Virus record (IMG/VR): IMGVR_UViG_2897369580_000002
Direction: 5' to 3' (one strand)
DNA from: a virus
Taxonomy: Duplodnaviria > Heunggongvirae > Uroviricota > Caudoviricetes
DNA: 40,110 bases
Position 1 is the first letter of the stretch; every line of letters starts with the position of its first letter. Both the position numbers and the translations under genes were made by a program. The notes beneath the pieces are model-generated. The model had not been told where the DNA came from. It was given only the letters and a program-made list of their open reading frames with translations, and made no database searches. Shown here piece by piece: positions 3,159 to 33,900 of the stretch.

Positions 3159-5621
3159 TCAATTCCCTGTTAATTGCAAAACTTGCTCTTCCAGCTTTTT
3201 AACCCTGCGTCTCATCATCGCAGATTCCAGAATCAGAGCCTCTTCATAACGGATACCGTAACATTCACCAGCCTCGACGGCTTCGCGTACCAGAACCTTT
3301 GTCTGTATAAGTGGGTAAACTCCTGCAGAATGCTCTTCTTCCGTCACATCCCTGTATTCTGCCGGGGTCTCATTCCACTTGTCATAACAGATAAATGCCA
3401 GTCGTGACACATCTATGCCTTCATTCTGAAATACACTGATAACATGCTGCGCAACTGCACCAAAGTGCCATCTTGCTCCGTCTTTACCTTTCACTTCGAT
3501 CCTGTCAAGGTACTGGTATGAAACCCATTCCACTCTTTCCCATGCGTCCAGTATTTTCTCATCAATAACCTCTGGAGCAGTCTTGAAACGCGCATCGGAC
3601 AGCACCGTAAACGCTGACTGGGTAAATCCCCCCGACCATGCACGACCAGCCAACCCAAGAGAATAAGTATTCGTTGTCGATGGTGTCATGGCTGAATCAG
3701 AAAACTGTATATATTCTGAATTTCCAGTAGATATTCGAATATTTCCATTTATTAGCGACATAGTGCCTTTAGTATTATCACTATTGAATAATTTCAATTG
3801 CGAACTTATACCGCCTCCCACAGCCAGAGATACATCGCCTTCAGCAAGCATTCTGAATTTATCTGCAGAAACAAGCGTCTGGTTAGCAAGGTTAAAATAT
3901 TTAACCCACCATTCAAAACGCCCTGACATAGTCCCAACGTACTGACCAAGCGCAGGGACGTGAACAACATTGCTATTTGTAGTGCCGTCTATACTGGAAA
4001 TACCAGTCACCGCTGATGCAGAACTCAGAATATTATTTCTGTCACCCGGATGTTTAATTTCAACAAAGTTCCTGATACACCCTTCCTCGAAGGTAACCAC
4101 GCCGGAAGAACTATACATGGGGAATATTGACGCATAATTACTGCGTGCAGCATCTAAGAAACGAATGGTTGTAGATGTCTGCAGATCTCCTGATTCATTT
4201 TTCCCATCACACCCAGTCATTAGAATATTACTGGCAATATTATTATTTCCCTGAACGGTGACTCCGTGCGCCTGCTTTGCGTCCGATTCAGAGTAATCAA
4301 CCAGCACATTCGAAATCAGGTTACCAGTCCCCTTGCCAACAACTACTGCGGCGTATTTTGGGTTGTTAGCCATTACACTGCTAATGATATTATTCGTTGG
4401 GGCAGTTTCCGTCTCAGTTCCATTGTAAACAACGTGCTGACACTCTTCACCAATAACATTGCTGACAATGTTATATTTTGCTGCTGTTTTAAGTTCCACT
4501 GCACCAAACTGAGGATAATTTCTGGCTATCACACCATCAATTAGCGTATTTTGCGATGAATCAAAAAGCACACAACCTGCTTTTTTATTATTTGCGAACC
4601 CTAAATACTCTCCTCTTATATCTCTAACAATGTAACCTGACGGAATACCATTATTCGGATAAGCGATCAAGCTAAATCCTGTTCCTCGCGTATTTGTAAA
4701 TCTGATATTTTTAACCGATACATCATGGCCACCTGAAAATGACACCTGGTGTCCCTGCACACTATCATCTGATTTATTTCCCATAATTGTTAGCGTACTA
4801 AGCATGCCACCATCGGGCATGTTAAAAACCAGATGATTACCATCTCTGTCATACTGTTTTATCGTTCCCCCACCTGTTCCGTACAAGCCACAACGTGAAA
4901 GAGAAACTAAAGATGTATTGAATACCCCTTCCGGAACAAAAACACTGCTAAACGAATGTAATGATTTTGTAAAAGCATCCTTGTTATCATTTAAGATTCC
5001 ATTTTGAGCTCCAAAATCCTTAATGCTGACACCATCACGCATCTTATCCTGGAACGTTCTGTATACCGCTCCAGAACCATACTGAATAAACCAACCAAAA
5101 CCACCAATAACTCCGGCGATTGCAGCATCGACATAATTACGCATTGAGCGATTATTTACAGCGTCCTGCTCAAGTGATGGATCGGCAAGGTTAGATATTC
5201 TGTTTTGCTTTGCATCGTAATATTTTGCAAGCAAAGATGGTTTCATCAATGCACGTCTGAACCACCCAAAACATCGCTGGATCAGCATCGTCAGGTAGTC
5301 AAATGCATCCTCATGAACTTCGGGGAAAAATTTTCCCTGATTGCGAAGATCAGTCTCCTGCACCACATCAAGCACACGCTCTATCGTGATTCGCCAGCCA
5401 GCAGCAAGCGGCGACGGAAGAACCACTGCACCGCCACTATAAGTTCCCGCCCCTGTTACCGTATAACCAGCATCCAGCACTAGTTTTGTAACGTTACCGT
5501 TAAGGTCAGACACCTGAACAACCAGGTCGGATTTTTTGAAAATACGGAAGGTATACGGAAATGATGTCGTAACGCCGTTACCTGTGTATTCGTTGTGGTC
5601 AACTTCGGTTGAGACCGTCAT
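3159..5621 (-). CDS. tailspike / tail fibre with beta-helix domain and C-terminal intramolecular chaperone (peptidase S74-like)
   Basis: Central pectate-lyase-like signature (GVSIKDFGAQNGILNDNKDAF); C-terminal ~146 aa begin with SDARFK auto-cleavage-type motif typical of self-cleaving chaperone domains; RBS GGAG. Confidence 0.8.
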   Translation of the reverse strand: MTVSTEVDHNEYTGNGVTTSFPYTFRIFKKSDLVVQVSDLNGNVTKLVLDAGYTVTGAGTYSGGAVVLPSPLAAGWRITIERVLDVVQETDLRNQGKFFPEVHEDAFDYLTMLIQRCFGWFRRALMKPSLLAKYYDAKQNRISNLADPSLEQDAVNNRSMRNYVDAAIAGVIGGFGWFIQYGSGAVYRTFQDKMRDGVSIKDFGAQNGILNDNKDAFTKSLHSFSSVFVPEGVFNTSLVSLSRCGLYGTGGGTIKQYDRDGNHLVFNMPDGGMLSTLTIMGNKSDDSVQGHQVSFSGGHDVSVKNIRFTNTRGTGFSLIAYPNNGIPSGYIVRDIRGEYLGFANNKKAGCVLFDSSQNTLIDGVIARNYPQFGAVELKTAAKYNIVSNVIGEECQHVVYNGTETETAPTNNIISSVMANNPKYAAVVVGKGTGNLISNVLVDYSESDAKQAHGVTVQGNNNIASNILMTGCDGKNESGDLQTSTTIRFLDAARSNYASIFPMYSSSGVVTFEEGCIRNFVEIKHPGDRNNILSSASAVTGISSIDGTTNSNVVHVPALGQYVGTMSGRFEWWVKYFNLANQTLVSADKFRMLAEGDVSLAVGGGISSQLKLFNSDNTKGTMSLINGNIRISTGNSEYIQFSDSAMTPSTTNTYSLGLAGRAWSGGFTQSAFTVLSDARFKTAPEVIDEKILDAWERVEWVSYQYLDRIEVKGKDGARWHFGAVAQHVISVFQNEGIDVSRLAFICYDKWNETPAEYRDVTEEEHSAGVYPLIQTKVLVREAVEAGECYGIRYEEALILESAMMRRRVKKLEEQVLQLTGN

Positions 5622-5724: not shown

Positions 5725-5741
5725 ATTACCTTTCAGGTAAT
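5725..5741. promoter_or_regulatory. palindrome ATTACC-N5-GGTAAT (TTACC-N5-GGTAA family, copy 1)
   Basis: ATTACCTTTCAGGTAAT, perfect 6-bp arms; in divergent region between tailspike and the LexA-box gene. Confidence 0.6.
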
Positions 5742-6390: not shown

Positions 6391-7086
6391 ATGACAGCTA
6401 CAAAAAGCACGTCCATTTTTTCTTTCGAATCCCAAGCCGATATACGGGTAATCGTCATTAATGGTGAGCCATGGTTTATCGCTTCAGATGTTTGTCGGGC
6501 TATAGGCATAGCAAACCATCGAGATGCTGTTCGAAAACTTGATGATGATGAGAAGGGCGTCGCTTCAACCGACACCCCTGGCGGTGAGCAAGAATCGATC
6601 ATCATCTCCGAGTCAGGCCTCTACACACTGATCCTCCGCTGCCGCGACGCAGTGACACCAGGCACTATCCCCTACCGCTTTCGTAAATGGGTTACAGGTG
6701 AGGTTCTTCCTCAGATCCGCCGCACCGGAAGTTACATTAAAAACTCGCTCCCGCAGGAAGAACGCATAAAGATGGTTGCCGACCAGGTAGCCAACGCCAC
6801 GGCGTCAGCAGTAATGCAGGCGATGAAGATAGAGAACAAAACCTACAGTGCCCCACTGAAGCCCGGCTACCGCAGCCTGATTCATTCGCCGTCTGGTGTT
6901 CTCGGCCTGACGGAGAACTCACTGCTGATGAATCTGCTGAACCAGTTACAGGAAGACGGGCACGATGTATCGGGCGCGGCGGCGGAGCTGACCACCATGT
7001 TCTGCTACATCGTCGGTGTGAGCAAATGCCTGCGTGATATCCAGACCCACGCGGAGTACATCAACGACAAAGCAGGATTCTTCTGA
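6391..7086 (+). CDS. Bro-N domain antirepressor (Ant-like)
   Basis: N-terminal Bro-N signature (FSFESQADIRVIVINGEPWFIASDVCRAIG); RBS AAGGTAACC; C-terminal domain shared with the upstream small protein. Confidence 0.75.
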   Translation: MTATKSTSIFSFESQADIRVIVINGEPWFIASDVCRAIGIANHRDAVRKLDDDEKGVASTDTPGGEQESIIISESGLYTLILRCRDAVTPGTIPYRFRKWVTGEVLPQIRRTGSYIKNSLPQEERIKMVADQVANATASAVMQAMKIENKTYSAPLKPGYRSLIHSPSGVLGLTENSLLMNLLNQLQEDGHDVSGAAAELTTMFCYIVGVSKCLRDIQTHAEYINDKAGFF

Positions 7087-7158
7087 CGGGCGGCGGCACA
7101 GGGATGTGCCTTTAAATAATTCTGTACAGATTGCAGACCGGGGGTGAATAGCGTACTA

Positions 7159-7173
7159 TTACCTTAAAGGTAA
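7159..7173. promoter_or_regulatory. palindrome TTACC-N5-GGTAA (copy 3)
   Basis: ATTACCTTAAAGGTAAA at 7158-7174, upstream of the 7216 gene. Confidence 0.55.
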
Positions 7174-7215
7174 ACCTGTTTTTATTTTATACCTGTAACT
7201 TACCGGAGATTAAAG

Positions 7216-7542
7216 ATGACAAAACTTGGATTCGTGATGAGAGGTCCGGTAAGAAGCGGAACTCATGCAAAGCGTAGCAAGAGTCGTATTTTTACTGGTA
7301 AGGTTGTAGCACGTAAATCAGCTATTGGCTCGTTCAATAGTGAAAATGCGGCATTGCGCCATATTTTTATCAGCACAAAGCCAAGAGCATCCGCTGATGT
7401 GCATACAATGTCTATTCCTATCACAAAGAATATCAAGCGGATAAAAAAGCTCTCATCTGCAGAATCAAAAGAGATATCTTTCCGCCAGCTTAACTCATTA
7501 GAAACGCATATGAAGGAAGAGGAATTCGATGTTTTTGAGTGA
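7216..7542 (+). CDS. hypothetical basic protein (AT-rich cargo operon, gene 1)
   Basis: ATG with RBS GGAG; Lys/Arg-rich; visibly lower GC than surrounding phage DNA; overlaps next gene. Confidence 0.5.
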   Translation: MTKLGFVMRGPVRSGTHAKRSKSRIFTGKVVARKSAIGSFNSENAALRHIFISTKPRASADVHTMSIPITKNIKRIKKLSSAESKEISFRQLNSLETHMKEEEFDVFE

Positions 7543-8041
7543 GTATAGCGGGAAGGTTATACCTACTGGTGAGTTTAAAACTGATGACTTTCTGATTTCG
7601 CTAAAAGATGCTTTTAAACAACACTGGCGTCATGGTCATCATCCTGATCTGGGAAAAGATACTCTTTTTGAAAGACCAGACGAAGTATTAGGCTTCCATC
7701 TCAGAAAGGTTCATGTCAATATTGGTGAATATGCATCATATTCATACTCATGTACTGAACAGTGTTGGGATGAGTGGTCATATGGATTGATTGATGAACA
7801 AGGAAATTACAGGCCAAAACCAACCAGTAACGCATATCTCATATATGCAGTCAATGAAATAAGAGATGCAGCCTTACTAGCTTATTGGGACCCGCCCGCA
7901 CACACCAAAGCTAACGCAAAAGTTTGGATGGATTCCGTATTGAATTTCACAAAATTATTTCATGAACGAACGAATACAGCTCCACTTAGTAGAAATGTTT
8001 ATCCGTGGGATTATTCGTACAAATCCAAAAAGCCTGCATAG
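7529..8041 (+). CDS. hypothetical protein (AT-rich cargo operon, gene 2)
   Basis: ATG with RBS AAGGAAGAGGAA; start overlaps end of gene 1 (coupled); aromatic and His-rich; no recognisable motif. Confidence 0.5.
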   Translation: MFLSEYSGKVIPTGEFKTDDFLISLKDAFKQHWRHGHHPDLGKDTLFERPDEVLGFHLRKVHVNIGEYASYSYSCTEQCWDEWSYGLIDEQGNYRPKPTSNAYLIYAVNEIRDAALLAYWDPPAHTKANAKVWMDSVLNFTKLFHERTNTAPLSRNVYPWDYSYKSKKPA

Positions 8042-22745: not shown

Positions 22746-23042
22746 TCACTCCTGTTCACTGGCCTCTTTGGCCATCTTCAAATACTGTTCAGGGCAATGC
22801 GCCATAACGCGCTGAAACAGTTCCAGCGCCAGATTGCGTTGCCCCTCATTAAATGCCATTGCCATAGCGTCCATCGGTGAGATAGCGGAAAACACACGGC
22901 CTTTCTCCAGCACCGACCAGACAACGCGACGCCCTTGTTCACTGCTCATGACAAAGCGAATGTCATCAATTTCACGCTGCGCCATGTCACGTTGCTTACG
23001 GGCGTTTTCTTCTTTCAGTTGATCGTCTTCGTAATCTGTCAT
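22746..23042 (-). CDS. hypothetical head-module protein
   Basis: ATG overlapping portal stop; 98 aa. Confidence 0.45.
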   Translation of the reverse strand: MTDYEDDQLKEENARKQRDMAQREIDDIRFVMSSEQGRRVVWSVLEKGRVFSAISPMDAMAMAFNEGQRNLALELFQRVMAHCPEQYLKMAKEASEQE

Positions 23043-24718
23043 TGTGATTGCCCACCCTGACCACTAACTGCATTCGCCATAGCTGTCAAAACACTCGGAT
23101 CCGAAGTTTTAGCTTCGCTTAGCGTCTTGGCACCCTGTGCCGCCGCCATCCCCACCGCCATCATTTGTTGTTGCTGTTGCTGCTGTGCCCGTTGCTGGCG
23201 AGCCTGCTCAACCTGTTCCTGCGGAACAATGACGGTTGGAGACACTCCGGACATATCAGCGAATGCATCGATCGCCTGATCAACGTTGAGTTTGTCGAGA
23301 GCTTCTGGTTTCGCTTGCGCAAGTTGACCAATGAAGTTAACCGTGGACGCCAGACTGGACAGGCCGATAGACTTCTGCGCCTGAGCCATGACGGAAATGT
23401 ATTCGACCTTCAGGGGCATACCTTCCATCACGTCTGGCGGTGGCGGCAGCATGTTTTTACGCACCATCATCGAGAAAGCGCGGTCAATGAGAGGATTAAG
23501 ACATTCGTCGTTCAGGCGCTCCAGAACCGGCCCCAACATCAGAAGTTTTTCTTCTTTCATTTCGATCACCGCTTCAACAGGCATCGAGCGGGTATTGATG
23601 TTCTGCAACATCATGAACAGATCGACAAAGTAGGCGCTGTTAATGATTTGACGAGTGTCCTGAATGTCTGCTACCAAATCTGCTGTACTGGGGTTAACCA
23701 GATAAGCAGGCCTGAAGCCATCCTGACCAGTAATCTGATCGATATACGTGATGTCGCCAGGAAGAAGGGAGGCGCGCTGATTCTTGAGGGAAGTCGGAGC
23801 AACCATCGGCGGATTGGTGGCTTTATCAATCAACTGCGACTTGCGCTTCTGGAGAAGCTGCAATGCCTTAACAGGTCCAAGCGCCAGCATACCCGGGCAT
23901 GATGATCCATAAACATCTTCGCCGTTAACTTCCCAGCGCGGAGCCATAATTGGAAACTCATCAAATCCGGACTCACGCAACAACTTGTCGTTATCGCCAC
24001 CAACCTCGTAATAAACCGATTTGAATGGCTTGTTCTTGCTATCCAGCTTCGATGTATCGCGGTCAATGTTCGGGTAAACCGAATGCATCACGTCAATCCA
24101 CTTCTCGTAGGTGCCGCTTTCCCACATGCTTTTTACGGATTCGCTGACGTTATTTAGCCCGAACTCCTGAACAAGCTGACGAACAGTCATAGAGAACTTG
24201 CGAAAACAGGTGTCCACACTGCCACGAGGTGAGTTAGCCAGGTAGTAACTGCCTATCGGGAATGGCATTGTGCGAATGATGTCCTCGTCATCCTCCAGCA
24301 CCGCCATTGCACCAGTGCTGTATGTGCCGAGGCTTCCGTATAACTGCGGAAGAGACTGGTAGAGATTCGACTTATTGAACATATCGTTCATGCGGTTCTG
24401 CACCGCCTCGAGCCACAACTTAACAGGACCATAATCCATCATTTCAGGATCTGGCGTAGCCAGGCGAAACCACGGACGCGCAGGGCTTGTGATGCCTGAC
24501 ATCATGCCGCTGGCGAGAGTGCGCGCCGCCATAGTCCCGGTCGAATCAATAATGCGTGTATTGCGTCGATCGTTACGGTTGACCTCAGAAGTCAGAAAGC
24601 GGGAACCACGCGGGTTGATGTAATCACTCAACTCGCGCCAGTGCGGCTCGAACGACTGACGCTCGCTTTCAAGTTGTGCGAACTGTTTGTTCAATCGCTC
24701 TTTAGTTGTTTCCGCCAT
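23039..24718 (-). CDS. portal protein
   Basis: 559 aa directly downstream of terminase region; poly-Gln tract near C-terminus; ATG with RBS GGAG. Confidence 0.8.
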   Translation of the reverse strand: MAETTKERLNKQFAQLESERQSFEPHWRELSDYINPRGSRFLTSEVNRNDRRNTRIIDSTGTMAARTLASGMMSGITSPARPWFRLATPDPEMMDYGPVKLWLEAVQNRMNDMFNKSNLYQSLPQLYGSLGTYSTGAMAVLEDDEDIIRTMPFPIGSYYLANSPRGSVDTCFRKFSMTVRQLVQEFGLNNVSESVKSMWESGTYEKWIDVMHSVYPNIDRDTSKLDSKNKPFKSVYYEVGGDNDKLLRESGFDEFPIMAPRWEVNGEDVYGSSCPGMLALGPVKALQLLQKRKSQLIDKATNPPMVAPTSLKNQRASLLPGDITYIDQITGQDGFRPAYLVNPSTADLVADIQDTRQIINSAYFVDLFMMLQNINTRSMPVEAVIEMKEEKLLMLGPVLERLNDECLNPLIDRAFSMMVRKNMLPPPPDVMEGMPLKVEYISVMAQAQKSIGLSSLASTVNFIGQLAQAKPEALDKLNVDQAIDAFADMSGVSPTVIVPQEQVEQARQQRAQQQQQQQMMAVGMAAAQGAKTLSEAKTSDPSVLTAMANAVSGQGGQSQ

Positions 24719-24732
24719 TTCAATGACTCCGG

Positions 24733-24939
24733 TTACTGACCAAGCAGCGTTTTACCGCTGGTATTAGCGGTTGATGTGTCGCCCTGAGAACCGGTAAGCA
24801 GCGTAGAACTACGACCAGCAGCAGCGCGACGGCGACGTGTTTCTTCGTCGCGGGCATCAACAACGGCGGCATCCTGCTCCTGTGGTGCTGCCTGAACTTC
24901 TGGTGTTGCAGGCACTGATGGTGAGCTACCCATGCACAT
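24733..24939 (-). CDS. small hydrophilic protein upstream of portal
   Basis: ATG; shares the 12-nt initiation-region sequence CGGAGTCATTGA with the portal gene. Confidence 0.35.
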   Translation of the reverse strand: MCMGSSPSVPATPEVQAAPQEQDAAVVDARDEETRRRRAAAGRSSTLLTGSQGDTSTANTSGKTLLGQ

Positions 24940-25029
24940 ATCAATGACTCCGTACGCAATTAAATTATTACCAATTTAACCACATATGATTTATTTATCG
25001 TAGAAGGTTGACATTTGACGCGCGAATTA

Positions 25030-25044
25030 TTACCTTTCAGGTAA
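25030..25044. promoter_or_regulatory. palindrome TTACC-N5-GGTAA (copy 4)
   Basis: ATTACCTTTCAGGTAAC at 25029-25045; TTGACA hexamer at 25008-25013 just upstream. Confidence 0.55.
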
Positions 25045-25366
25045 CTAAAGAGCTCATTCCGGCTACTAACCTGACTGGCTTGTCGTTAAATTGAACAGGT
25101 GGAGTGAGATTTTATTTTGAGCAGTACGGCGTATGGCACATGCGCCGATAGCGGTCTGGATACGTTTAAGGGGCACCCTCCCTTGCTCGGGCAAACGAAC
25201 CAGGTAGCCGGAATGTGCAAGTCGAGCGGTTTTATTCCGCGCACGGGGATTCACCATCCTGGCGATTCGGTGTGACGCCTCGGAAGAGACGAGAGTACAA
25301 CGATGAGAGCATTTATGGAGCCGCGACAAAGTGTGGCGCCTTAACAGGCTAAGTGCTCTCAGCGTT

Positions 25367-25443
25367 GTGGTATTAGCTCAGTTGGACAGAGCAACCGCCT
25401 TCTAAGCGGTTGGTCGCAGGTTCGAATCCTGCATGCCACGCCA
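25367..25443 (+). tRNA. tRNA-Arg (anticodon TCT), phage-encoded
   Basis: Hand-folded cloverleaf: acceptor GTGGTAT/ATGCCAC, D-arm GCTC..GAGC, anticodon stem ACCGC/GCGGT with loop CTTCTAA, T-arm GCAGG-TTCGAAT-CCTGC, discriminator G, encoded CCA. Confidence 0.9.
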
Positions 25444-25486
25444 GAATCACGCCTAAGGACCGTGATACCAGAAGTTCCAGGTGCTT

Positions 25487-25528
25487 GGCGGTGATGGTTT
25501 CCCTTGAAGGACTATCACCGCCCTTTTT
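25487..25528 (+). terminator. rho-independent terminator downstream of tRNA
   Basis: GGCGGTGAT ... ATCACCGCC stem followed by CTTTTT. Confidence 0.6.
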
Positions 25529-25606
25529 ACAGCAGGACGCCATTGCGATGACTTCATGCTGTAAACCCGTACAGCCACGGAAGGCATAACTCATTGCTTC
25601 CAGTTC

Positions 25607-25630
25607 GCCCGGTTCGCCGGGCATTTTTTT
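25607..25630 (+). terminator. terminator/attenuator hairpin immediately upstream of the 25642 gene
   Basis: GCCCGG-ttc-GCCGGGC followed by ATTTTTTT; RBS AAGGTGAG begins right after the T-run. Confidence 0.5.
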
Positions 25631-25641
25631 AAGGTGAGATT

Positions 25642-26013
25642 ATGAACGACCAGCAAATCGAAAAAGAAATCGTTGAGAAAGGCAAAACGGCACCGCGCGT
25701 TACGCCAGACCATATCGAAGGCATTATTGCTCAGGAGGCATATTTCACAGCAGAAGATGGTGCCTTTGGCAAAGCCATAAAAGCGAAACATACTGGCGGA
25801 GAGGTAAACTACCAGCCGCACGAATCACTTTCTCTGCTGACGTTCTGCGTCCTGGTGCTGCGCAACGGCTTCACCGTCACCGGAGAGAGCGCCTGTGCAA
25901 GCCAGGAAAACTTTGATGCAGAAATTGGTCGGAAGATTGCCCGGCAGAATGCTGTAAACAAAATCTGGATGCTCGAAGGTTACTTGCTGAAGCAGAAGCT
26001 AAGCGAGCAATAA
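25642..26013 (+). CDS. hypothetical phage protein (cargo gene between terminase and portal)
   Basis: ATG with RBS AAGGTGAG; 123 aa; opposite orientation to flanking late genes; own terminator. Confidence 0.6.
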   Translation: MNDQQIEKEIVEKGKTAPRVTPDHIEGIIAQEAYFTAEDGAFGKAIKAKHTGGEVNYQPHESLSLLTFCVLVLRNGFTVTGESACASQENFDAEIGRKIARQNAVNKIWMLEGYLLKQKLSEQ

Positions 26014-26019
26014 CACCGT
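26008..26019. repeat. 12-bp palindrome GTGACATGTCAC (copy B)
   Basis: Overlaps the stop codon of the 25642 gene; lies just beyond the 3' end of the terminase large-subunit gene. Confidence 0.7.
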
Positions 26020-26023
26020 GACA

Positions 26024-26050
26024 TGTCACAAACAGCCAGCCGATGAGCTG
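26024..26050 (+). terminator. rho-independent terminator
   Basis: AGCCAGC-cgatg-AGCTGGCT followed by TTGTTTT. Confidence 0.65.
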
Positions 26051-26103
26051 GCTTTGTTTTATCCTCATCAGAGGATATCAACGACATTATCCCCACCAGC
26101 GGA

Positions 26104-27579
26104 TTAAGCATATGGATCGTAATCTGTGATGGCCTTGCCTTGCTGGTTCTGCTGCCCGGGAATTCGCAGACGCTTCGACACAGGGAACGCAAACGTCAGC
26201 AGTAGCGCATCGCCTTTACCAGGAGAACGCCCAAGCCGCTCCTTGATATCTTCCTTCGGTTCGATAACGATTTTACCGTCCACTCGAACTTTGTACTCTG
26301 CCGCAGACAGGTCGTCCGCTGTTTCCTGGTCATCCAGCATGCCGCCCAGCCTCAGCCATGTCTTGCATGAGTTGAACATCTCCCCACGCTTGTTGAGCAT
26401 CTGCGGGTCAGTAGACGCGCCACCGAACGGAACAAGTTGCCATGTACGACCCCAGCCATCACCGATTGACTTCAGACCAGTTCCGTAACCGAAGTCGATG
26501 AACACCGCGTCAGCCTGGTACTGGTCTTCAAAGTCAGCGATACGCTTCGCCATAATCAGATCGTCGGTGGTCTTGTTACCAGTCCATAGCACCTTACTGT
26601 GCAGCCCCTGCCGCAGGTATATCACCGCGTCATCAACGCCTGAATATGCCGGGTCAACACCGATTATCACCGGAGCATGCGCCACCTGCGCAGCGGTTAC
26701 CACCCGTTTCATTGCCTCATCAGTAAGACCGGTAGGGATAAACTGCAATTCAGATGCATCAGGGAATATGCCGCGCACACGGATTTTAACGAAGTCGCTG
26801 TCTTCCCCGTAGTCATCAACCCATTTCTGCAACTGCTGTTTGTTAGTGCCTTCCACCGTCCGGCTGTCAATCTGCGCAGTTTTCCAGCGGTGTTTATATT
26901 TGCGGAAACATTCACGGAATCGCCCGGTATTACGCGTCGGGTTTCCGAACGCCACCCAGATAATCTCAGTGTCTTCGTCCGTTAGCGCACCTTCGGCAAC
27001 TTCCCACACCAGATCCGCAATATTCGACGCTTCATCGAATACCACGATGATGCGTTTGCGCTCGTTGTGTAGTCCGGCGAATGCCTCAGTGTTGTGCTCA
27101 GACCAGGGGATTGCGTCAGCTCGCCACCGCTTGTCGTGTCCAGGGTCATTGCTGTACATCGCGGTAGCTGTACAGGTAAACCAGTCTTTCGTGATAGCAA
27201 GGTTTGACCACTTGATAATTTCCGGCCAGGTCTTCGTTCGTAGCTGGTTGTCGGTGTTGGCGGTCACCACGACCTTACAATCCTCGCAAGTGGACATGCC
27301 CCAGTTGATCAGCATTGAGATGAATGCGGATTTACCAATACCGTGACCCGAAGCACGTGCCAGCATAAGCGGCTGATAGCGCGTCTCTGGATTCTGCAGG
27401 TGATCACGTATCTCTCGGAACGCATCAGCCTGCCACTTACGTGGGCCGGTAGCATGTGCCAGTTCAGTCCCCTCTTCCCCCCACGGGAACGCATAGAGGG
27501 CATAGCCAAGCGGATCGTGAGTGAACCCTGCAATATCCTCGATCAACTGCTCTTCAGGAGATAACGCTGTATCTGTCAC
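26104..27579 (-). CDS. terminase large subunit
   Basis: 491 aa; GTG start overlapping small-subunit stop (GTGA); ATPase P-loop-like GHGIGKS and C-terminal nuclease region. Confidence 0.85.
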   Translation of the reverse strand: MTDTALSPEEQLIEDIAGFTHDPLGYALYAFPWGEEGTELAHATGPRKWQADAFREIRDHLQNPETRYQPLMLARASGHGIGKSAFISMLINWGMSTCEDCKVVVTANTDNQLRTKTWPEIIKWSNLAITKDWFTCTATAMYSNDPGHDKRWRADAIPWSEHNTEAFAGLHNERKRIIVVFDEASNIADLVWEVAEGALTDEDTEIIWVAFGNPTRNTGRFRECFRKYKHRWKTAQIDSRTVEGTNKQQLQKWVDDYGEDSDFVKIRVRGIFPDASELQFIPTGLTDEAMKRVVTAAQVAHAPVIIGVDPAYSGVDDAVIYLRQGLHSKVLWTGNKTTDDLIMAKRIADFEDQYQADAVFIDFGYGTGLKSIGDGWGRTWQLVPFGGASTDPQMLNKRGEMFNSCKTWLRLGGMLDDQETADDLSAAEYKVRVDGKIVIEPKEDIKERLGRSPGKGDALLLTFAFPVSKRLRIPGQQNQQGKAITDYDPYA

Positions 27580-28281: not shown

Positions 28282-28293
28282 GTGACATGTCAC
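28282..28293. repeat. 12-bp palindrome GTGACATGTCAC (copy C)
   Basis: Overlaps stop codon of the 28290-28637 gene, upstream of terminase small subunit. Confidence 0.7.
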
Positions 28294-28637
28294 ACTATTA
28301 ATTTCGTTTCATGCCAGCCTTTAGTCACCCAGCATTGCGAGTCACCATTACACGGGCATGAATTAACTGGAACTCTCTCGCCGCACTTACCGCAACGTTT
28401 TCTGCTGATCGATTTTATACGCCCGCGCACACGTGCATCATCCTGGCGGATCAGCAGCGCGATGTACTCGGCCATTTCATAGGGATCGCGACCAGGGCGC
28501 CGGGCGGCGCAGTTCCGCGCCAGCATTTCCTGCTCCTGCTTATCCAGCACCAGTTCAATTTTGCGCTCACCGGCGGCGGACTGCCGAGCGCGCTGCGCGG
28601 CTTTGCGTTCTGCGGGGGATTTAGCCACGAATCGCAC
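28290..28637 (-). CDS. hypothetical protein with C-terminal Cys-rich (zinc-ribbon-like) motif
   Basis: GTG start; basic helical N-terminus; C-terminal CGKCGERVPVNSCPCNGDSQC; directly upstream of the terminase genes. Confidence 0.5.
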   Translation of the reverse strand: MRFVAKSPAERKAAQRARQSAAGERKIELVLDKQEQEMLARNCAARRPGRDPYEMAEYIALLIRQDDARVRGRIKSISRKRCGKCGERVPVNSCPCNGDSQCWVTKGWHETKLIV

Positions 28638-33837: not shown

Positions 33838-33868
33838 TCACCCATAAGGTAACAAAAATCAAGGATAG

Positions 33869-33883
33869 TTACCTATGAGGTGC
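33869..33883. promoter_or_regulatory. degenerate TTACC-N5-GGTGC palindrome (copy 9)
   Basis: GTTACCTATGAGGTGCA at 33868-33884. Confidence 0.4.
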
Positions 33884-33885
33884 AT

Positions 33886-33900
33886 TTACCCGTTGGGTAA
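33886..33900. promoter_or_regulatory. palindrome TTACC-N5-GGTAA (copy 10)
   Basis: TTTACCCGTTGGGTAAT at 33885-33901, between divergent Cro-like and repressor genes. Confidence 0.55.

Follow-up and report, generated by a model that had tools for sequence, protein, structure and literature searches.

A covarying structured RNA precedes a tRNA and a predicted anti-CBASS gene in a plus-strand unit of Uetakevirus prophages

What is the role of a plus-strand unit that lies among the minus-strand late genes of a prophage, and what fills the DNA ahead of its tRNA gene? The unit in question belongs to a stretch of 40,110 nucleotides (nt) from a tailed phage (Caudoviricetes; IMG/VR record IMGVR_UViG_2897369580_000002), analysed as a whole and called the window below. 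It carries a tRNA-Arg(UCU) gene and a gene for a protein of 123 amino acids (aa), and it sits between terL and the portal gene of a Uetakevirus (epsilon15/phiV10-like) prophage. An earlier note on this DNA had described it as inserted cargo made of a promoter-like hexamer, a tRNA, terminators and one anonymous gene. Here we describe a structured RNA upstream of the tRNA, assign the 123-aa protein to the Acb4 family of sponges directed against CBASS (the antiphage signalling system based on cyclic oligonucleotides), and weigh what the RNA may do.

A double-pseudoknot RNA upstream of the tRNA

The 360 nt upstream of the tRNA turned out not to be the mere spacer for which they had been taken. They are filled by a conserved structured RNA that the earlier note overlooked, and the segment 25125–25297 folds as a double-pseudoknot RNA, hereafter the core. 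From an alignment of 27 diverse copies of the core (A2) we built the covariance model R1. The fold supported by A2 has a hairpin at the 5' side (P1), a helix (P2) around a variable hairpin, a helix of 4 bp (P5) that closes the conserved loop YUCACCA, and a hairpin (P6) with the loop GGAAGAGA. One pseudoknot joins GGCACAU in the P1 loop to AUGUGC within a 19-mer, GGTAGCCGGAATGTGCAAG; this pairing is invariant, hence covariation cannot test it. The second pairs CACC of the P5 loop with a downstream GGUG and covaries to AACC:GGUU in the type found in phage cdtI. The elements of the unit are as follows.

25009–25037, plus strand: sigma-70-type promoter, read from the sequence (−35 TTGACA at 25009–25014, 17-nt spacer, −10 TACCTT at 25032–25037)
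25030–25044, both strands: operator-like perfect palindrome TTACCTTTCAGGTAA, overlapping the −10 hexamer
25045–25124, plus strand: 5' leader spacer, whose 3' part resembles the 3' half of the P7-type hairpin of relatives (alignment with epsilon15, Tyrion and IMG/VR locus L012)
25125–25297, plus strand: structured RNA core (R1, 135.9 bits, E 7e-42)
25298–25366, plus strand: long hairpin P7 (CAACGAUGAGAGC ... GCUCUCAGCGUU) with a variable apical insert (duplex energy, complementary variant stems)
25367–25443, plus strand: tRNA-Arg, anticodon UCU (ARAGORN; Rfam RF00005; RefSeq annotation of the identical prophage)
25444–25528, plus strand: 3' trailer with a hairpin AUCACG/CGUGAU (25446–25466), predicted terminator T1 (25487–25522) and a U run (terminator pattern scan)
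25529–25630, plus strand: conserved hairpin-bearing spacer, then the strong predicted terminator T2 (GCCCGGTTCGCCGGGC plus 7 T, 25607–25630; pattern scan)
25631–26013, plus strand: ribosome-binding site (RBS) and 123-aa gene (25642–26013) of the Acb4/Phage_gp49_66 family (PF13876; Pfam), a predicted cyclic-dinucleotide sponge
26034–26053, both strands: predicted terminator T3 between the convergent cargo gene and terL, where phiV10 carries an annotated rho-independent terminator

The proposed pairs are strongly supported by covariation. In A2, 95.1% of the cells are paired and 10 pairs are changed on both sides, with a covariation score of 0.252 against 0.110 in shuffled alignments (0 of 500 reaching the observed value) and at most 0.068 in controls with slid partners. 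A second set of 23 copies that R1 found in bacterial genomes gave 98.8% paired cells and a score of 0.370 against 0.159, in an alignment that is itself fitted to the model. Conserved G-U pairs occur on the plus strand only, the pair 32–92 being U-G in all 27 sequences, which indicates that the plus-strand RNA is the functional one.

When the region 24600–26300 was compared with Rfam 15 at E values up to 1, only the tRNA was found and the core matched no family; an Rfam search of seven related loci likewise left the core uncovered. A weak RyhB-like match at T2 (18 bits) and an antisense Plastid-ycf2 match on the tRNA were set aside as chance. Our literature searches gave no description of the core RNA. 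The Pas small RNAs (sRNAs), described in pathogenic E. coli (bioRxiv 2026.05.13.724894), map to the Q/lysis region and have no relation to the core. Judged from its sequence, the core represents a widespread RNA family with strong covariation for which we found neither an earlier description nor an Rfam entry, and its function and processing are considered below as predictions.

The core RNA is widespread in phages of Enterobacterales

By blastn, the core was present in 1836 of 5426 complete E. coli genomes (34%) and nowhere annotated. The 427 nt upstream of the tRNA, used as a query, matched other Uetakeviruses as expected and in addition lambdoid and P1-like phages, all without annotation. 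Identity was about 82% over 240 nt in the lambdoid phages cdtI, mEp460, 2H10, Ayreon and Shiga toxin (Stx) 2c and Stx2a phages, and about 80% over 165 nt in P1, P7, D6, SJ46 and RCS47. The 19-mer GGTAGCCGGAATGTGCAAG is invariant among the blastn-identified relatives that we read and subsequently served as bait for collecting further loci; it matches more than 120 IMG/VR contigs and occurs in 24 species-representative genomes, all of them Enterobacterales except two metagenome bins.

In phage P1 (NC_005856, 71023–71191) the unannotated core scores 137 bits with R1. Its place is the ban operon, which C1 controls; it starts 15 nt past trnI and runs directly into ban. A second copy, of the kind that phage HK022 has in putR beside putL, was looked for and rejected: R1 detects only one copy in each of the complete records of the window and of cdtI, and one in the 8-kb ban region searched in P1.

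Phage epsilon15 has neither the core nor the tRNA and retains T2 and the cargo gene. This appears, from comparison with phages of the SPN1S type, to be a secondary deletion between two TTCCCTTGATGCT repeats; in the latter, one repeat lies in the loop that P2 encloses and one in the T1 loop. Set against SPN1S, epsilon15 (record positions 2700–2960) retains a single part of the RNA, the P1 hairpin, which is joined to the T1 loop. The 100-nt RNase III site annotated in epsilon15 overlaps the start of this remnant with its 3' end by about 40 nt (2688–2728), most of the site lying just upstream.

Among the IMG/VR relatives, L012 is labelled as a Stenotrophomonas phage and contains at 1370–2480 many GGAAAGACC repeats, some in hairpin loops and some placed like an RBS before ATG. 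Its host assignment may be doubtful, because enterobacterial-type sequence is also present.

The RNA ends at a tRNA or tRNA-like domain and is followed by two predicted terminators

The hairpin P7, which comes after the core in the window and in most relatives, connects the core to the tRNA. Across 34 distinct relatives the mean duplex energy of its strands is −20.1 kcal/mol, compared with −9.4 kcal/mol when the 3' strands are shuffled, and the strands are complementary in every variant (GAGAGC/GCUCUC, AAGAGC/GCUCUU, AAGCGC/GCGCU, AAGGCG/CGCCGUU). The P7 3' strand stops exactly where the tRNA, or a tRNA-like domain, starts. No nucleotide separates the two, and all variants share the same junction, GUUG|UGG. 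The domain after P7 is tRNA-Arg(UCU) (26 of 127 loci), a tRNA-like minihelix (GUGGUG ... GCCGG-loop-CCGGC-CACCAC-A) or a visibly decayed tRNA.

ARAGORN calls the tRNA of the window as tRNA-Arg(tct), the only tRNA it finds there, and the Rfam covariance model accepts it with 71.1 bits (E 4e-15) against a gathering score of 29. The earlier note had held it to be phage-specific rather than a copy of the host gene, and this view stands. Compared with argU of E. coli K-12, the acceptor stem reads GUGGUAU instead of GCGCCCU and the anticodon stem differs as well, and the anticodon loop is identical. In the record of phiV10 the tRNA is unannotated, and an open reading frame (ORF), PhiV10p04 (record positions 3434–3685, equal to 25373–25624 on the minus strand of the window), is annotated antisense to the tRNA and T1; this ORF is very probably spurious.

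T1–T3 are predicted as intrinsic terminators from their G+C-rich hairpins and U runs and from their conservation in relatives. The trailer architecture of the window recurs after the tRNA or tRNA-like domain in many relatives, and T1 and T2 are conserved there, T2 preceding cargo genes that differ. The T2 hairpin (25607–25622) has 7 T after it and is placed 12 nt upstream of the RBS. Its stem shows a compensatory change relative to epsilon15 (GCCCGG..CCGGGC and GCCCAC..GTGGGC). A terminator directly before the RBS had been proposed as a sign of read-through or attenuation control; T2 and its conservation bear this placement out and support regulated read-through. The number of terminator-like hairpins on the plus strand is by itself not significant (4 found, 1.8 ± 1.3 expected). 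We regard the segment from the promoter through T1 as one modular noncoding unit.

The trailers of relatives also resemble a host sRNA. At 1631–1750 of L012 and in many other IMG/VR loci, the trailer is nearly identical to the 3' half of host RprA, almost base for base over AAUUGCUGUGUGUAGUCUU and including the terminator; as in RprA, a hairpin and a rho-independent terminator are found, here directly after the tRNA. The L012 trailer scores 50.2 bits with the RprA model (RF00034), below its gathering score of 70. The trailer of the window gave no match to this model at E values up to 10 and differs in sequence at the seed position. This similarity suggests that the RprA-like trailers may be phage-borne RprA-like sRNAs or share an origin with RprA.

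The promoter overlaps a recurrent operator-like palindrome

The promoter-like TTGACA of the earlier note is present, and the −35 and −10 hexamers and their 17-nt spacing are kept in epsilon15, SPN1S and Tyrion. A consensus promoter scan made no call at 25009–25037, because the −10 hexamer TACCTT is weak.

The palindrome that overlaps the −10 hexamer has the form TTACCT-N3-AGGTAA, for which the window has 18 matches when up to two mismatches are allowed, with 0.88 expected (0 of 100 shuffles reached 18). Perfect copies lie at 5726, 7159, 25030, 31517, 31579 and 34598. Three imperfect copies at 33838–33900 stand between a cro-like gene and a helix-turn-helix repressor gene, that is, in the immunity region. 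The copies other than that of the unit (5726, 6107, 7159, 31517, 31579, 34598, 34661 and 33838–33900) precede accessory or early genes or sit in the immunity region, and together they suggest a regulon of several units under the prophage repressor. The epsilon15 record annotates the homologous site as a repressor binding site. From this annotation and from its distribution, the palindrome is likely to be the operator of the prophage repressor. Since the promoter is overlapped by a recurrent palindrome that clusters in the immunity region, the plus-strand unit is probably repressor-controlled and early; it would not be expressed in the lysogen and would belong to a group of early units that are derepressed together.

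The 123-aa gene belongs to the Acb4 anti-CBASS family and occupies a variable slot

The 123-aa gene is not the anonymous cargo it had seemed. Its product matches PF13876 with 118.5 bits (cut-off 27) over all 82 profile positions (1–82), and in a search of PDB sequences it matches the Acb4 structure 9e4w (E 0.006) with a common ENFxxEIGR motif. PF13876 is the Acb4 (anti-CBASS 4) family defined by Chang and colleagues, with 1,331 homologues; its founder, from phage SPO1, is a tetrameric sponge for 3'3'-cyclic GMP-AMP (3'3'-cGAMP). All eight homologues that they assayed bound 3'3'-cGAMP, and those of Gram-negative hosts bind 3'3'-cyclic di-AMP (3'3'-cAA) too (PMC11722364). Family membership is therefore firm at the level of sequence, and sequestration of CBASS signals is predicted from it.

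We mapped the SPO1 ligand contacts (K36, F48, E49, V56, Y57, F62, N63, I66, T70 and K81) onto the 123-aa protein through the HMMER alignment, which allowed eight of the ten to be placed. F48, F62 and I66 are identical, and V56C and N63D are conservative changes, N63 contacting the ligand through its backbone. The remaining three mapped contacts are altered non-conservatively (E49T, Y57A and T70I), which weighs against a simple transfer of function and means that the ligand specificity of the predicted sponge may differ from that of SPO1 Acb4. The protein is also 27 residues longer than SPO1 Acb4. Structure prediction did not help the sponge assignment, as a single-sequence AlphaFold2 model was too poor for use of its fold (predicted local distance difference test score 39.4). 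PADLOC gave no match for the protein and PHROGs only "unknown function". The promoter scan detected no promoter of its own for the gene.

Relatives that share the leader, T1 and T2 differ in the gene placed after T2. In the IMG/VR locus L097 the same module and both terminators are followed by a Tad2-like gene (PF11195, 85.7 bits). The position after T2 thus behaves as an anti-defence cargo slot, in which the Acb4-like gene is replaced by a Tad2-like gene or others. The other slot proteins have 89–290 residues, and searches of Pfam and the PDB found no relatives for them. In L118, L014, L033, L128 and L047 the slot proteins are uncharacterised. PHROG families 4846, 4780 and 11049, which include a membrane/coiled-coil protein of 262–292 aa, are represented in the slot and offer candidate anti-defence genes.

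AGA usage points to early, accessory and tailspike genes

The earlier note had proposed comparing the use of AGA/AGG codons in the late genes with that in the host. Over the ORFs of the window AGA is used at 6.15 per 1000, about three times enriched overall. Of 1468 codons in guaA, guaB and xseA, the flanking host genes, none is AGA. Its distribution over the phage genes is uneven. The frequency is 15.9 per 1000 in the tailspike gene, 8.5 in early and accessory genes, 3.9 in genes for internal and tail proteins, and only 1.7 in head and terminase genes. An early-made tRNA-Arg(UCU) fits the early, accessory and tailspike genes better than "late genes" at large. The tRNA might also replace a tRNA cut by host anticodon nucleases, an idea that its anticodon loop, being identical to that of argU, does nothing to support.

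What the unit and its RNA may do

We consider it fairly probable that the unit is a repressor-controlled early accessory operon with a noncoding leader of about 330 nt that includes the core and P7, then the tRNA, T1, T2, the Acb4-family gene and T3. On infection or induction, host RNA polymerase would transcribe the plus strand. Cleavage by RNase P at the P7/tRNA junction would free the leader RNA and the tRNA, and the tRNA would provide AGA decoding for the AGA-rich early, accessory and tailspike genes. Some polymerases would get past T1 and T2 and express the Acb4-family sponge, which would then sequester CBASS signals. The start site, the processing and the read-through of this transcript are thus predictions.

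For the leader RNA itself we tentatively favour an action in cis, by analogy with HK022 put and the EAR element of B. subtilis, in which the RNA would make the polymerase that produced it resistant to terminators. HK022 put is known to act without proteins on the polymerase that made it (PMC9378689). This reading is favoured because the RNA recurrently lies between an early promoter and terminators. In the window, it stands between the likely repressor-controlled promoter and the two terminators that precede the 123-aa gene. In cdtI, mEp460, 2H10 and Stx2a_WGPS2 the order is cI, a terminator, a promoter with an operator-like palindrome, the RNA module, a T1-type terminator and the early-left genes. 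The lambdoid early-left promoter is near consensus there (TTGACA-16-CATAAT, 11 of 12), palindrome half-sites recur between cI and cro, and a scan of these four regions found no further promoter. The complete cdtI record and the 5-kb regions viewed for the other three phages carry no annotated N gene. L012 follows this promoter-RNA-terminator order too, its very strong terminator having 7 G-C pairs and 7 U. The core begins about 10 nt after the −10 hexamer in several phages, and a terminator lies no more than 900 nt downstream of it in 69 of 94 distinct loci. By inspection of the output for these 94 loci, the core and the first real gene after it nearly always share a strand. How early antitermination is achieved in lambdoid phages without N has been unexplained, Casjens and colleagues suggesting only "a put-like mechanism" (PMC12315714). 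An antitermination site of the lambda nut type is not evident in the window, where we found only GUGCUCUC, paired within P7, and no single-stranded boxA (GCUCUUUA-like) next to a boxB hairpin.

Several observations weigh against antitermination in cis. The core bears no similarity to put: when the element and the cdtI module were compared with the whole HK022 genome by blastn, only chance matches of 11–13 nt came up, and the best R1 hit in HK022, a 33-nt fragment with 5.7 bits and E 2.4, is not credible. It is single-copy per phage, compared with putL and putR in HK022. No terminator follows the core in P1, where it lies just upstream of ban, or in L073, where an ORF follows at once. A hairpin and a boxA come after the core in L092 (a perfect UGCUCUUUAACAA), with boxA-like sequences in L036 and L049, which hints at antitermination based on Nus factors in those phages. 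Epsilon15 survives without the core and the tRNA, still having T2 and the cargo gene. The invariant junction of P7 with the tRNA or tRNA-like domain suits the release of a discrete RNA at least as well.

That last point is the strongest argument for the main rival to antitermination in cis, in which the leader RNA is a discrete, stable, trans-acting RNA cut from a polycistronic precursor and T1 and T2 are ordinary, partly leaky terminators. RNase P would generate its 3' end by cutting at the tRNA or tRNA-like junction; its 5' end would come from the transcription start or, in P1, from the tRNA upstream, the P1 core beginning so shortly after trnI. A conserved component of the host or of a defence system is what such an RNA would bind, serving for instance as an anti-defence decoy or as a sponge of a host factor. 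Conservation of the 19-mer across genera of Enterobacterales is what binding to a conserved partner would predict, the RNA is located in an anti-defence locus, and it is present where no terminator follows. On the other side, the RNA is by inspection nearly always upstream of same-strand genes and usually near an early promoter, as a free-standing RNA gene need not be, and it has no known partner. We judge this reading somewhat unlikely; the two are not exclusive, and put activity has been described as independent of tethering to the elongation complex (introduction of PMC9378689).

The core could instead be a riboswitch-like sensor of a ligand or factor, setting termination at T1 and T2 or the access of Rho according to host physiology. 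A 5' leader position, a complex pseudoknotted fold with invariant unpaired stretches and terminators downstream are what such a sensor would have. Yet 100–250 nt, made up of variable inserts and the tRNA or tRNA-like domain, separate the core from T1, so that direct competition between aptamer and terminator is implausible, and several contexts have no terminator at all; we regard a sensor as very unlikely. The plainest account, close to the earlier note, is a simple moron with a phage-specific tRNA for AGA in late genes and an anonymous gene, the 360 nt being promoter and spacer and the terminator an attenuator. The tRNA, the gene and the terminators are confirmed, T2 is conserved, and AGA is enriched overall. 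This account is nevertheless highly improbable, as the supposed spacer is a covarying RNA shared by lambdoid and P1-like phages, so that this part is already contradicted, AGA is rare in head and terminase genes, and the gene is an Acb4 family member. Least credible is that the upstream region encodes small proteins, such as a 52-aa ORF at 25117–25275 (plus strand) or an 87-aa ORF at 25066–25329 (minus strand). These ORFs do exist, and hypothetical proteins are annotated over homologous DNA in some records, but the replaced segments of relatives differ by lengths that are not multiples of three (39 and 35 nt), an ATG in P7 is missing from many variants, and the variation tracks base pairing, including G-U pairs of the plus strand. 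On indel lengths and pairing pattern we ruled out the small-ORF reading of the leader.

Comparison with known systems

Like putL and putR of HK022, the RNA lies just downstream of a repressor-controlled early promoter and before intrinsic terminators in lambdoid phages in which no N is annotated. Lambdoid phages show this put-type position of the RNA, and the window has the promoter and the terminators. The two RNAs differ in build, put having about 70 nt and two stem-loops and the core about 170 nt and two pseudoknots, with no sequence similarity. The core is found outside PL leaders too (P1 ban and the Uetakevirus unit), and antitermination by it is a prediction only.

Structured RNAs coupled to tRNAs are known from other systems. 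The 3' external transcribed spacer of the leuZ transcript (3'ETS-leuZ) acts as an sRNA and, like the trailer here, has a hairpin and a rho-independent terminator right behind a tRNA; stable RNAs are co-transcribed with phage tRNAs, as are species 1 and 2 of T4, or lie near prophage tRNAs, as do GOLLD and ROOL; and RNase P defines the 3' end of MALAT1 at mascRNA. The core resembles T4 species 1 and 2, GOLLD, ROOL and MALAT1/mascRNA in that a structured RNA is physically linked to a tRNA or tRNA-like domain, by which its end might be set. The core is far smaller than GOLLD or ROOL, has no Rfam family and is restricted to phages of Enterobacterales.

With SPO1 Acb4 the 123-aa protein shares the ENFxxEIGR segment and the identical contacts named above, and its ligand binding is a prediction. 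As in the anti-defence islands that carry Acb and Tad genes, a fixed regulatory frame is combined with variable cargo, which is Acb4-like here, Tad2-like in L097 and uncharacterised elsewhere. The frame differs in being a long module of noncoding RNA and tRNA with two terminators ahead of the cargo. To our knowledge, no other anti-defence locus has been described with such a frame.

The core may represent a new class of phage regulatory RNA with no kinship to known families, either a third type of protein-independent processive antiterminator or an RNase P-released factor for anti-defence or host takeover, a proposal that is possible rather than probable at present. As an antiterminator, it would account for early-left read-through in the lambdoid phages viewed, which have no annotated N (cdtI, mEp460, 2H10 and Stx2c/Stx2a phages of the SfV-like early-region type), as well as for expression of the anti-defence cargo in Uetakeviruses, and it is a concrete candidate for the acknowledged gap in early antitermination of lambdoid phages without N. 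If either reading is true, phage P1 and about a third of complete E. coli genomes contain a very common functional RNA that has gone unannotated. Confirmation would add a widespread RNA family, carried by 34% of complete E. coli genomes, by Stx-converting phages and by P1 between trnI and ban. A fixed noncoding frame would then drive interchangeable sponges of the Acb4-like and Tad2-like kinds, new anti-defence genes could be found by position, and the result would bear on how the prophages of clinical E. coli evade CBASS and Thoeris.

The locus and its surroundings

The region 24940–26103 is 100% identical to a prophage adjoining guaA in E. coli ATCC BAA-2469; with phage phiV10 and with the O157 typing phages 9 and 10 it shares about 95% identity. 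The gene order of the window (terS, terL, plus-strand unit, gp3, portal, protease, GP7-type capsid protein) is that of the genus Uetakevirus. The flanking genes are as follows.

26104–27579, minus strand: terL
24733–24939, minus strand: gp3
23039–24718, minus strand: portal gene

ARAGORN, Rfam, the terminator pattern scan and Pfam together bear out the unit of tRNA-Arg(UCU), three terminator hairpins and 123-aa gene. It is real, and in this bare form already annotated, since the RefSeq entry of the identical prophage labels a "tRNA-Arg" and a "Gp49 family protein". Its position between terL and the portal gene is as the earlier note had it, but it is not a recent insertion; the unit is a conserved feature of the genus, in Uetakeviruses of E. 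coli, Salmonella, Klebsiella and Enterobacter. The interpretation given in that note is thus partly supported as a whole. What appears to be added to earlier annotation is an early repressor-controlled anti-defence locus, a recurrent frame with other cargo, and a covarying RNA family.

Directly upstream of the minus-strand genes gp3 and portal, about 65 nt (24940–25008) are nearly invariant across this prophage, epsilon15, SPN1S and Tyrion. They may hold a late promoter or regulator site that restarts transcription of the head genes past the antisense unit. Just upstream of terS, a 115-aa ORF on the minus strand (28290–28637) has an arginine-rich N-terminus (AERKAAQRARQSAAGERK) and a Cys cluster, and Pfam holds no match for it. 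Its product may be a late regulator or an RNA-binding antiterminator. The accessory region at 6391–8041, which lies between the tailspike and internal-protein genes, codes for a Bro-N protein and for a toxin of the YafO family whose gene has a small partner gene upstream; an operator-like palindrome precedes each.

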